50,783 nt of DNA from Desulfobacteraceae bacterium. Lineage in GTDB: Bacteria > Desulfobacterota > DSM-4660 > Desulfatiglandales > B25-G16. The stretch is taken from positions 1 through 50,783 of the forward strand of contig JAUWZV010000003.1 of the NCBI GenBank assembly GCA_030615105.1, read 5' to 3'. This document shows, in pieces, positions 38,449-39,241 of this stretch. Under the pieces are notes generated by a model that worked only from the letters and a program-made list of their open reading frames with translations, had not been told where the DNA came from and searched no databases. The position numbers were made by a program, and so were the translations under genes. The first letter of the stretch is position 1. Each line of letters opens with the position of its first letter.

Positions 38449-38900
38449 GGAGAATAGAAAAAGAGTAATAGTTCACTGCAGAGGCACAGAGCACACAGAG
38501 GGACTATATCTTTTACCTGGTTGGGAGACGACAGTCAGGTAAAAACACCAGCCTTCGGCAAAGTAATTGGCTCTAAATATAGTCTGCGGTGATATTATAT
38601 AAACATTGTAGCAATGAACATAAACAAGCTAACAGGTCAAATAATCGGCGCTGCTATTGAGGTGCACAAAGCACTCGGACCAGGCCTATTGGAATCAGCT
38701 TATGAGGAGTGCTTGTGTTATGAATTCGGTTTGAGAAGATTTAGGTATGATCGACAAAAACCTCTTCCTGTTGAATATAAAGGAGTTAAGCTCGATTGCG
38801 GATATCGTCTTGATGTTGTTGTTGAAAAAACAGTAGTTTTGGAATTGAAATCATGCGAGAAGATTGAGCCGATTTACCCAGTTAAATAGGCTGAGGTCCA

Positions 38901-39224
38901 ATGCATTATATTTATGTATTGCAAAGTGAGAGGGATATGAGATTCTATATAGGCTATAGCAAAGATCTCAAGCTAAGACCTGCCCAGTTAAATAATGCCT
39001 TGCATTAAAATGATAAATTTCAAAAATTATCATTTTATTTAACCGGGTAAAAGCAGCACAATAAAGGTCTTGTGCGATCAACGAGGGATCGTAAACCTTT
39101 CAAGCTAGTCTATTATGAGGGATGCCTTGACCAAAGGGATGCAACAAAGCGAGAGAAGTACCTGAAATCTTATCATGGAAGGATGTTCCTGCAGAACAGG
39201 GTCAAATCTTATTTAACCGGGTGA
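38901..39224 (+). pseudogene. Small GIY-YIG nuclease (UPF0213-like, 84 aa when reconstructed), interrupted by a 69-bp mini element
   Basis: MHYIYVLQSERDMRFYIGYSKDLKLR-[insert 38983-39051 with TAA]-QHNKGLVRSTRDRKPFKLVYYEGCLDQRDATKREKYLKSYHGRMFLQNRVKSYLTG*. GAGG RBS upstream. Not in the ORF track. Confidence 0.85.
38983..39051 (+). mobile_element. 69-bp palindromic mini element inside the GIY-YIG gene
   Basis: cccagttaaat...atttaaccggg-taaa, with internal hairpins aatgccttgcatt and taaaatgataa...ttatcatttta. Confidence 0.8.
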
Positions 39225-39241
39225 ATAAGGCCCAACTTTTG

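Follow-up and report, generated by a model that had tools for sequence, protein, structure and literature searches.

A candidate minimal mobile-element family built from one GIY-YIG nuclease gene and its own inverted ends

Introduction

Bacterial transposable elements are classed by their enzyme, as DDE, DEDD, HUH, serine or tyrosine, and we know of no insertion sequence as small as ~280 nt. Members of the IS200/IS605 group insert 3' of a tetranucleotide without duplicating it and have ends that form separate subterminal hairpins; IS608 has the target TTAC on its left and an element-borne TCAA on its right, and in IS605-type elements TnpB acts as a retention or homing nuclease. Repetitive extragenic palindromes (REPs) carry a conserved GTAG or CGTC tag at their foot. 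Among GIY-YIG proteins, the stand-alone UPF0213 type is, in the accessible text of Dunin-Horkawicz et al. 2006 (PMC1564403), a minimal variant of the fold. Small GIY-YIG open reading frames (ORFs) have also been described in non-intron insertions, neither group I nor group II introns, of rRNA genes in Patescibacteria of the candidate phyla radiation (CPR), and similar insertions also hold 23S_rRNA_IVP genes (Tsurumaki et al., bioRxiv 10.1101/2024.02.27.582315, as far as its accessible text goes). Here we analyse a stretch of 50,783 nt from the genome of a Desulfobacteraceae bacterium (contig JAUWZV010000003.1 of assembly GCA_030615105.1; the whole stretch is called the window below), in which a gene of the GxxExxY / PD-(D/E)XK type is broken by a 349-nt insert at 38877-39225 that carries a GIY-YIG gene between inverted ends. 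We see a somewhat better than even chance that this insert is one copy of a widespread minimal selfish element family, made of a single GIY-YIG gene and inverted ends, with gene-less non-autonomous partners (minis hereafter).

Results

Throughout, G000 denotes the window's own genome (2.46 Mb in 171 contigs, 81% complete) and C-labels its contigs; L-labels denote fetched loci, G-labels genomes and X-labels metagenome runs. The broken gene and the insert both lie on the plus strand. The 5' part of the host gene (38614-38876; 87 codons and TA of the next; Pfam PDDEXK_3, E 1.8e-28) reads ...CCG ATT TA up to 38876 and resumes as T AAG GCC CAA CTT TTG after the 349-nt insert; this short middle segment (39226-39241) was placed by alignment to contigs C40 and C116, and the 3' part continues through the TAG stop at 39295-39399. 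The break is confirmed because the paralogues on C40 and C116, which are 78% and 77% identical over the 87 pre-insert codons, run uninterrupted there and read ...CCA ATC CAT AAG GCA CAG CTT CTG ACA TAT... at the corresponding site. The clean split of a GxxExxY gene, first proposed in a sequence-only reading of this DNA, is thus borne out both by the sequence and by intact paralogues.

The insert consists of a core (CCC..GGG, 38877-39221, including a nested element) and a 4-nt tail, TGAA. Its left inverted-repeat arm, CCCAGTTAAAT (38877-38887), is extended to 38896 by TAGGCTGAGG, which contains a GAGG ribosome-binding-like site 5 nt upstream of the ATG at 38901. The ORF is carried in two parts, codons 1-26 (MHYIYVLQSERDMRFYIGYSKDLKLR, 38901-38978; Pfam PF01541, E 7.4e-05) and codons 28-84 with the TGA stop (KQHNKG...KSYLTG*, 39051-39224; PF01541, E 2.2e-06), with all invariant family residues present; the halves score 23.4 and 28.3 bits against PF01541, for which the curated cut-off is 22.6. 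The right arm, ATTTAACCGGG (39211-39221), followed by the tail to 39225, encodes the (Y)LTG and the stop codon: TAT TTA ACC GGG TGA at 39210-39224 reads YLTG and stop, as had been claimed, and the 4-nt tail contributes the stop codon. This gene is the sole ORF of the insert, and no Y1 transposase (TnpA) is encoded in it.

With the intact protein of contig C65 as query and matches counted at E≤1e-3, we found 1838 protein matches; among the 120 listed, 115 are exactly 84 aa long and most are on short contigs, as expected of repeats, and all 120 carry PF01541. A genomic scan (one genome per species) gave 315 relatives, and our locus-level comparisons rest on the 80 loci fetched from these. They come from Desulfobacterota, Alpha- and Gammaproteobacteria, Aminicenantes, anammox Planctomycetes (Brocadiaceae/Scalindua), many Patescibacteria, Bacteroidota, Balneolaceae, Chthoniobacterales and others, and across these loci of unrelated phyla the protein is 57-89% identical. 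Viral contigs yielded only 2 relatives, so phage carriage does not appear to be the main route. G000 itself has three further copies of the family: an intact 84-codon copy flanked by TTTA and TAAA (C65:32098-32374), a second interrupted copy on C2, and a copy on C67 that is 59% identical and has the ends CCCCGTTAGAG and CTCTAACGGGG (GTTAGAG/CTCTAAC). On one contig of another genome (G072:C86; loci L064 and L092), at least three family copies, namely an intact one, an interrupted one and a fragment, lie within ~7 kb.

The family is defined as much by its ends as by its protein. Under a strict rule that tolerates no more than one mismatch among the six stem bases adjoining CCCnG, matched ends bracket 62 of the 78 full-length homologues; some of the remaining 16 have one-base shifts or G-T variants (e.g. 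L036, L049), and others, mostly the most distant homologues, show no ends. The stem of the bracketed copies is TTAAAT in 42, TGAAAT in 10, TTAGAG in 4, TCAAAT in 2, and TTAAGT, TTAGAC, TGAGAT and TTAGAA in 1 each. In all eight variants the two arms co-vary (e.g. GTTAAAT/ATTTAAC, GTGAAAT/ATTTCAC, GTCAAAT/ATTTGAC, GTGAGAT/ATCTCAC and GTTAGAG/CTCTAAC), and the C-terminus of the protein tracks the stem variant as YLTG, YFTG or SLTG. Homologues had been expected to end in Y(L/F/S)TG between such ends, and this is indeed the pattern, with Y(L/F)TG or SLTG as the endings and compensatory changes in the arms. The family consensus left end, CCCnGTTAAATAGCTTGAGG, faces CTCAAATCTTATTTAACnGGG at the right end. 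Terminal pairing extends over ~20 nt (CCCTGTTAAATAGCTTGAGG versus CTCAAATCTTATTTAACAGGG), so that the ribosome-binding site falls inside the left arm, and the intact element folded as single-stranded DNA forms the terminal stem (z -4.05). A typical element is about 277-280 nt long, with one 84-codon gene, the ends CCCnGTTAAAT / ATTTAACnGGG and a 4-nt tail.

The protein is conserved as an enzyme would be expected to be. Twelve columns are invariant among 37 sequences, including Y5, Y16, R26, E50 and E62, and H30 is nearly invariant; we take Y5, Y16, R26 and E62 to be the catalytic residues of the GIY-YIG fold (two tyrosines, an arginine and a metal-binding glutamate), and the conserved catalytic-type residues are all present in the window copy. 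Sequence comparison indicates that the family protein is under purifying selection: the median proportions of nonsynonymous (pN) and synonymous (pS) differences are 0.19 and 0.79 over 496 pairs, and dN/dS is 0.11 in 147 unsaturated pairs. In the arm-encoded codons 77-84, pS is 0.33 versus 0.855 in codons 1-76, hence the same bases are conserved both as protein and as DNA, a double constraint. Foldseek with the AlphaFold model (predicted local distance difference test, pLDDT, 92.8) ranked 1zg2 (UPF0213) first, followed by nuclease-domain entries of eukaryotic Slx1, which PDB entry titles give as an enzyme of branched DNA (probability 1.00; TMq 0.57-0.67). By sequence it matches BH0048 (1zg2) and EF2693 (1ywl), presumably COG2827-type proteins, at E 6.9e-06 and 1.2e-04, and its fold matches that of the I-TevI catalytic domain weakly (E 0.29). 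The whole protein is a single catalytic domain of 84 aa, without the C-terminal DNA-binding module of I-TevI-type homing endonucleases. Both sequence and fold assign it to the UPF0213 / Slx1-like branch of stand-alone proteins in the GIY-YIG superfamily.

A homodimer is predicted with a score of 0.76 (best of 3 controls, 0.00), with runs agreeing in 100% of contacts and a partner pLDDT of at least 90; in benchmarking, that score was reached by 20 of 30 structures of same-chain pairs and by 1 of 23 single-chain structures. The predicted interface comprises residues 47-54, 56-57, 60-61 and 77-81, that is the strand 47-54 and the C-terminal helix 77-81. Slx1 crystallises as a homodimer, and the pass of this prediction may reflect likeness to solved structures.

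Gene-less copies of the same ends are plentiful. The end motif CCCNGTTAAAT (at most one mismatch) occurs 23 times in the window against 4.61 +/- 2.27 in shuffles, none of 100 shuffles reaching 23, which agrees with the earlier claim that the ends of the insert match those of gene-less elements scattered through the window. These hairpin or T-shaped derivatives are 29 to about 120 nt long and have the same ends and junction rules as the GIY-YIG elements. Within the window (no strand is assigned to them), one mini is nested in the GIY-YIG gene itself at 38979-39051, CCTG-[CCCAG...CCGGG]-TAAA, with a 65-nt core (38983-39047) and two internal hairpins. A second mini (39242-39294; 53 nt; CTTG-CCCAGTTAAAT...ATTTAACCGGG-G), missing from the sequence-only account, also interrupts the GxxExxY host gene, where the paralogues read CTT CTG ACA TAT without it. 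Beyond the host gene, a hairpin element at 39439-39505 (CCCTGTGGAAT...ATTCCTCTGGG) holds a nested 31-nt hairpin (39455-39485); C127 and C55 have empty versions, and an X1 contig joins 39451 to 39492 with GCAA between. Mini hairpins with the same ends lie at 37179-37209 (31 nt; a related empty site is found in C116) and 9371-9399 (29 nt), and a cluster of several minis, some of them nested, at 48152-48383 (48152-48200, 48206-48295, 48353-48383).

Across G000, 213 hairpins of this design were counted against 46 in a reversed-genome control, the stem classes being TTAAAT (57), TTAGAA (16), TTAGAT (12), TGAAAT (10), TTGAAT (9) and TGGAAT (8). Many minis are T-shaped, the outer stem enclosing two small internal hairpins, and this design is found in Desulfobacterota and in Patescibacteria; the internal stems stay paired by two-sided changes (e.g. 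GCTGC/GCAGC, GTTGC/GCAAC, GCTGG/CCAGC). Elements of G000 that exceed 150 nt and have exactly matched stems are either GIY-YIG elements (C2, C62, C65, C67) or non-coding (C64, 155 nt; C104, 320 nt). The C104 element (3493-3812) has the ends CCCTGTTAGAT / ATCTAACAGGG, a flanking direct repeat CCAG and no ORF in any frame. Coding and gene-less elements are paired much as MITEs (miniature inverted-repeat transposable elements) pair with their parents: TTAAAT minis occur in G000 with TTAAAT-ended GIY-YIG elements and TTAGAA/TTAGAT minis with a TTAGAG-ended one, and a 120-nt element beside the intact C65 copy retains 23 of the 24 nt of the full element's left end.

That the unit is a mobile-element family seems to us very likely. 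Two contigs of one metagenome-assembled genome (MAG), L023 and L024, are 98.0% identical over 302 nt that are exactly (A)CCC..GGGTGAA, and their flanks are unrelated. Eight loci have the element inside a GxxExxY gene, with two insertion sites among them, and excising the core plus 4 nt restores a gap-free frame; keeping the left TTTA beats keeping the right tetranucleotide in six of them and ties in two, a preference that at this site fits the Val/Ile-Tyr codon pair NTT TAY. For minis, the flank pairs of 132 elements gave 34 matches to paralogous element-free sites, with core+4 as the commonest net gain; for example, C41/C160 read CTCG-core-CGAG against a single CGAG in five empty copies, and C107 reads TTCA-core-TTCA against a single TTCA when empty. 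Among gene-less elements with TTAGAA/TTAGAT stems, 7 of 10 are flanked by perfect 4-nt direct repeats (TAAA three times, TTTA twice, CTCA and CCAG); direct repeats also flank the TTAGAG-ended GIY-YIG elements of C67 and L082. The nested mini has empty counterparts as well: metagenome contigs of X2 and X6 carry the GIY-YIG gene without it, 38978 being joined to 39052 with TTTG between, and the orthologous loci L037 (empty, AGA TTTG AGC) and L093 (filled, AGA CCTG-[core]-TAAA AGC) are ~97% identical. Empty sites, which had been put forward as a way to check the proposal, thus exist for minis (at paralogous sites) and for the nested element; a comparison of the DNA around the window locus with 20 related genomes gave no close relative and hence no orthologous empty site by that route.

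These findings bear directly on the possibility that nothing here is currently mobile, the hairpins being host-kept, REP-like structural or regulatory repeats (terminators, mRNA stabilisers or RNase III sites) and the GIY-YIG gene an ordinary small repair gene. The compensatory pairing of internal hairpins in T-shaped minis could indeed mean a host-level function, and minis persist without the gene. However, the elements interrupt coding genes and each other, near-identical loci differ by presence or absence, a 98% duplicate stands at an unrelated locus, and the protein keeps the identity given above across unrelated phyla, being multi-copy in some genomes with many copies on short contigs. 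We therefore consider an immobile origin very improbable.

The nested mini deserves separate attention since its insertion is not unique to the window. In six interrupted GIY-YIG copies (the window, C2, G009, G090, G072 and G107) the junctions are all CTAAGA-CCTG[...]TAAA-AGCA at codon 27. Four of the nested minis are 97-99% identical, whereas the GIY-YIG genes that house them share 73-78% identity (51-61% at third codon positions), and the tree intersperses the six interrupted genes with 13 intact ones, one of the six lying 0.04 substitutions per site from an intact copy. Near-identical minis in diverged hosts, together with the interspersed tree, indicate that the mini entered the codon-27 site several times. 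Both halves of all six genes are free of stops and frameshifts (the last two codons of L092 differ), with pN/pS of 0.21-0.29, as expected if each was intact until recently. A single old inherited insertion was also considered and is ruled out by the same near-identity of minis and interspersed tree. The sequence-only reading had taken the nested element for a one-off knock-out by a 69-bp element with the same ends: the interruption and the net gain of 69 nt stand, yet the inserted unit is really 73 nt (CCTG-core-TAAA) replacing the TTTG of the intact gene, and the event, far from being singular, is recurrent and site-specific in GIY-YIG genes.

Target choice follows rules that differ between two end types. 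Elements with TTTA...TGAA ends are found at TTTA before a pyrimidine, and those with CYTG...TAAA ends at (T/A)T(T/A)G before (C)AG; the codon-27 target, TTTG before AG, resembles the sites of GIY-YIG elements with CYTG...TAAA ends. In GxxExxY genes, L034 has A-CCTG-core-TAAA-AG where the empty paralogue C40 has ATA GAG. Both end types have a left tetranucleotide that is similar to the target, as is the complement of the right tetranucleotide; most of the differences noted are transitions. As the change of TTTG to CCTG recurs in independent events, both tetranucleotides move with the element, which replaces 3-4 target bases. The main class is TTTA + core + tail with no direct duplication, and the CYTG...TAAA class has a net gain of core+5 or core+4. 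The flanking tetranucleotides are TTTA, CCTG and CTTG on one side and TAAA, CAGG and TGAA on the other, with no GTAG/CGTC tag. Four junction models were tried (core + 3' tail after a fixed tetranucleotide, 5' tetranucleotide + core, direct 4-bp duplication and inverted 4-bp duplication), and none fits all sites.

Insertion sites recur. In GxxExxY genes they lie at about codon 88 (the window, L012, L021, L031) and at about codon 25-30 (L011, L013, L018, L032, L047), and in genes for four-helix-bundle proteins at N-I-(A)-E-G; the latter context was read by eye from the flanks, a tblastn search with one four-helix-bundle query having missed most such hosts. Elsewhere in the window, pieces of another GxxExxY-type gene (37360-37563 and 37711-37836; KIIGAAIEV...; ...NFKVPLMRDGIVRIVNEL) adjoin the mini hairpin at 37179-37209, and this second fragmented gene beside a mini suggests that GxxExxY genes are frequent landing sites. 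The predicted protein P0065 (144 aa) joins PF01541 to PF05635 (23S rRNA intervening-sequence protein) and is probably a read-through call across a GIY-YIG element in a four-helix-bundle gene, as in contig C2.

Recurrent sites invite the view that the gene is a free-standing homing endonuclease that cuts unoccupied copies of multi-copy host genes (of the GxxExxY, four-helix-bundle and GIY-YIG kinds) and is copied by homologous repair from an occupied paralogue, the ends serving expression or RNA processing. Its sites in GxxExxY and four-helix-bundle genes do recur, the bases next to the junction change with insertion (TTTG to CCTG) as co-conversion would have it, and GIY-YIG is a classical homing-endonuclease fold (PMC1564403, in its accessible text). 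Nevertheless, this protein is an 84-aa catalytic core with no DNA-binding domain; L023 and L024 have the element in common and no flank homology; minis occur at many unrelated sites, and their arms co-vary although they have no gene; and the 4-nt direct repeats of the TTAGAx subfamily indicate staggered-cut insertion. Homing of this kind is, in our estimate, improbable.

A further matter is which enzyme moves the element, and we think it fairly probable, from sequence comparisons, that its own nuclease moves both the element and the minis. Of 121 sampled genomes of the order, a family match at E≤1e-10 occurs in 47, and one or more short TTAAAT minis in 71; the backwards-sequence control gave none in any of the 121. 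Of the 25 genomes with a strong family match (E≤1e-20), 24 contain minis, as do 47 of the 96 others, so the anticipated association between minis and gene is seen in this order-level sample, although genomes of one order are kin and the counts overstate independence. The ~1-Mb Patescibacteria genome G121 has three family matches, including one intact 84-codon gene with GTGAAAT ends, and five 52-nt T-shaped minis with the same GTGAAAT stem (those at L095, that is G121:C1:22000-29000). A test for cognate stems between GIY-YIG elements and minis within the 80 loci, which has low power, gave 7 matches of 21 against a permutation mean of 5.2.

Several points weigh against the nuclease as mover. Besides kinship, the incompleteness of MAGs affects the counts of gene and mini presence, and it cuts both ways. 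Protein, Pfam and profile searches (the last at E≤1e-3) found no family gene in G097 (7.2 Mb, 4 contigs, 96% complete), which has 25 minis, or in G043 (95% complete), which has 19; the Pfam GIY-YIG matches of these two genomes are confined to long ORFs, of 377, 627 and 259 aa in G097 and of 662 aa in G043. G075, with 21 minis, has only small GIY-YIG genes of other subfamilies that are not obviously bracketed. The G097 minis are mostly of one 46-nt T-shaped type, with internal hairpins that pair via compensatory changes, and their flanks TTTA...TGAA, or the mirror image, are the junction of the GIY-YIG element; in G097 and G043 the partner may have been lost or be missing from the assembly, the minis may be kept for another reason, or another enzyme may move them. 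An abundance of minis without the gene, which the sequence-only reading had named as grounds for giving up its proposal, is therefore partly observed. The junctions are not uniform either: the net gain is core+4, core+5 or core+3 depending on the class, and the TTAGAx subfamily has direct 4-nt repeats where the main class has inverted-like tetranucleotides with transition mismatches. Lastly, we know of no GIY-YIG nuclease, all of them hydrolytic enzymes, that forms a covalent intermediate or carries out strand transfer, so that joining would fall to the host.

Some of these same points fit transposition by a different enzyme acting in trans, the most plausible being a single-strand Y1/HUH transposase like those of IS200/IS605 elements or the REP-associated tyrosine transposases (RAYTs), with the nuclease as a passenger or as an accessory, for example in retention or homing. 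Matches to Y1_Tnp (PF01797) are plentiful (13 in G000, 22 in G097, 22 in G075 and 5 in G043), which makes action in trans possible, and the minis thrive in G097 and G043 without a family gene. The main class, a core and 3' tail after TTTA with no direct duplication, resembles IS608, which again counts against the nuclease, and T-shaped hairpins recall the substrates of HUH nickases. On the other hand, none of the Y1_Tnp loci whose stretches were read (10 in G000 and 10 in G097) is bracketed by these ends, which also bears on the suggestion that another transposase might carry them. G121 and G125 have the family gene, and G121 its five cognate minis too, with no Y1_Tnp match at E≤1e-3. The C-terminus and the ribosome-binding site are built into arms that co-vary through eight stem variants, which would be unexpected of a casual passenger, and the ends, which have no GTAG/CGTC tag, are paired together and do not make separate subterminal hairpins. 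We regard movement in trans as unlikely, though it is the leading alternative. As to the Y1_Tnp matches themselves, in G000, G097 and G075 they comprise classical ~150-aa ORFs and a set of ~320-350-aa ORFs in which the Y1_Tnp domain is N-terminal.

Other features of the neighbourhood can be noted briefly. Just upstream of the broken GxxExxY gene, two small overlapping ORFs (37973-38448; 62 and 96 aa) look toxin-antitoxin-like. A different ~60-nt repeat (39500-39561) begins just past the hairpins and ends before a UDP-GlcNAc 2-epimerase-like gene (39586); it recurs at 80-93% identity on many G000 contigs and in at least nine related genomes. An Rfam search of window positions 36500-40000 gave no match. 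A more distant small GIY-YIG gene without these ends lies at G000:C140:38264-38482, directly after an apparent tRNA gene 3' end.

Discussion

Of the proposal made in the sequence-only reading, namely an autonomous ~280-bp GIY-YIG element with non-autonomous derivatives, the architecture, the ends and the family stand and mobility is supported, whereas the GIY-YIG protein as the responsible enzyme, and the manner of strand joining, we infer from sequence. If the nuclease does act on its own element, the paired ends would form a fold-back stem, either in single-stranded DNA or as a cruciform, with the two junctions at the foot of the stem. The structure-specific nuclease, acting as a dimer, would then cut at this foot and at short targets (TTTA before a pyrimidine, or else (T/A)T(T/A)G before (C)AG). 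Joining of the element would be left to ligation and repair by the host, and the terminal tetranucleotides would resemble the 3-4 target bases that they replace.

All in all, we take this to be a real and widespread class of minimal mobile element, and probably a new one. In the literature that we searched, we found no element of bacteria in which a GIY-YIG gene goes together with terminal inverted repeats or with MITE-like derivatives, and we judge it likely that the family has gone undescribed. For the stronger statement the chances seem to us about even: that this is a new class of prokaryotic transposable element whose sole protein is a dimeric, structure-specific Slx1-like GIY-YIG nuclease recognising its own folded-back ends, that it is ~280 nt long, spans at least eight phyla including genome-reduced Patescibacteria, and has given rise to hairpin and T-shaped minis that enter genes, one another and, time and again as hyperparasites, codon 27 of the nuclease gene. 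If this is true, a bare GIY-YIG nuclease would add a catalytic class to those listed above and a new lower size limit for an autonomous element, and the widespread UPF0213 / bacterial Slx1-like proteins, for which structures have been solved, would gain a function. The family also provides an origin for the small palindromic insertions by which genes and assemblies of sediment bacteria and Patescibacteria are broken, and a mini that repeatedly enters the nuclease gene is, in compact form, a natural example of a parasite with its own parasite. In addition, a small nuclease able to recognise hairpin DNA and short motifs could become a tool.

How, then, does the family compare with systems already described? 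REP/REPIN-RAYT systems likewise have short dispersed palindromes, a single small enzyme gene that these palindromes flank, and nested, clustered copies. In contrast to them, the enzyme here is GIY-YIG and not Y1/HUH, the GTAG/CGTC tag is absent and the Y1 genes examined are not flanked by the repeats of this family; furthermore, the gene is multi-copy and horizontally spread across phyla, and the elements insert into coding genes. The main class resembles IS200/IS605 elements in the fixed tetranucleotide (TTTA here), the element-borne 3' tetranucleotide and the lack of duplication, and the family does so in its very small size and the apparent recognition of hairpin DNA, but here there is no Y1 transposase, the ends pair together and one subfamily makes 4-nt direct repeats. 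As with MITEs and their parent insertion sequences, terminal inverted repeats are common to the coding element and to short non-coding derivatives, the 120-nt C65 element being an intermediate; the parent here, however, encodes no DDE, DEDD, HUH, serine or tyrosine transposase.

Among GIY-YIG systems, homing endonucleases (I-TevI, I-BmoI, Seg) and Penelope-like retroelements also place a GIY-YIG nuclease in the service of a selfish element, with recurrent insertion sites, yet the present element has no DNA-binding domain, intron or reverse transcriptase. The CPR rRNA-gene insertions come close in their small GIY-YIG ORFs, although no inverted ends, minis or mobility model are described in the accessible text of that work (bioRxiv 10.1101/2024.02.27.582315). 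The intervening sequences of 23S rRNA are stem-closed insertions in an rRNA helix that RNase III removes; none of 20 loci scanned here lies in an rRNA gene, only tRNA genes being nearby. In the new-class reading, elements of this family might have given rise to stem-closed intervening sequences like those of rRNA genes. Finally, UPF0213 and prokaryotic Slx1-like proteins (1zg2, 1ywl) have the same minimal catalytic domain. No role has been assigned to those proteins, and the accessible text of the superfamily survey (PMC1564403) describes no inverted ends or mobility for them, whereas here the gene is fused with co-varying terminal repeats, occurs in many copies and is accompanied by gene-less derivatives.

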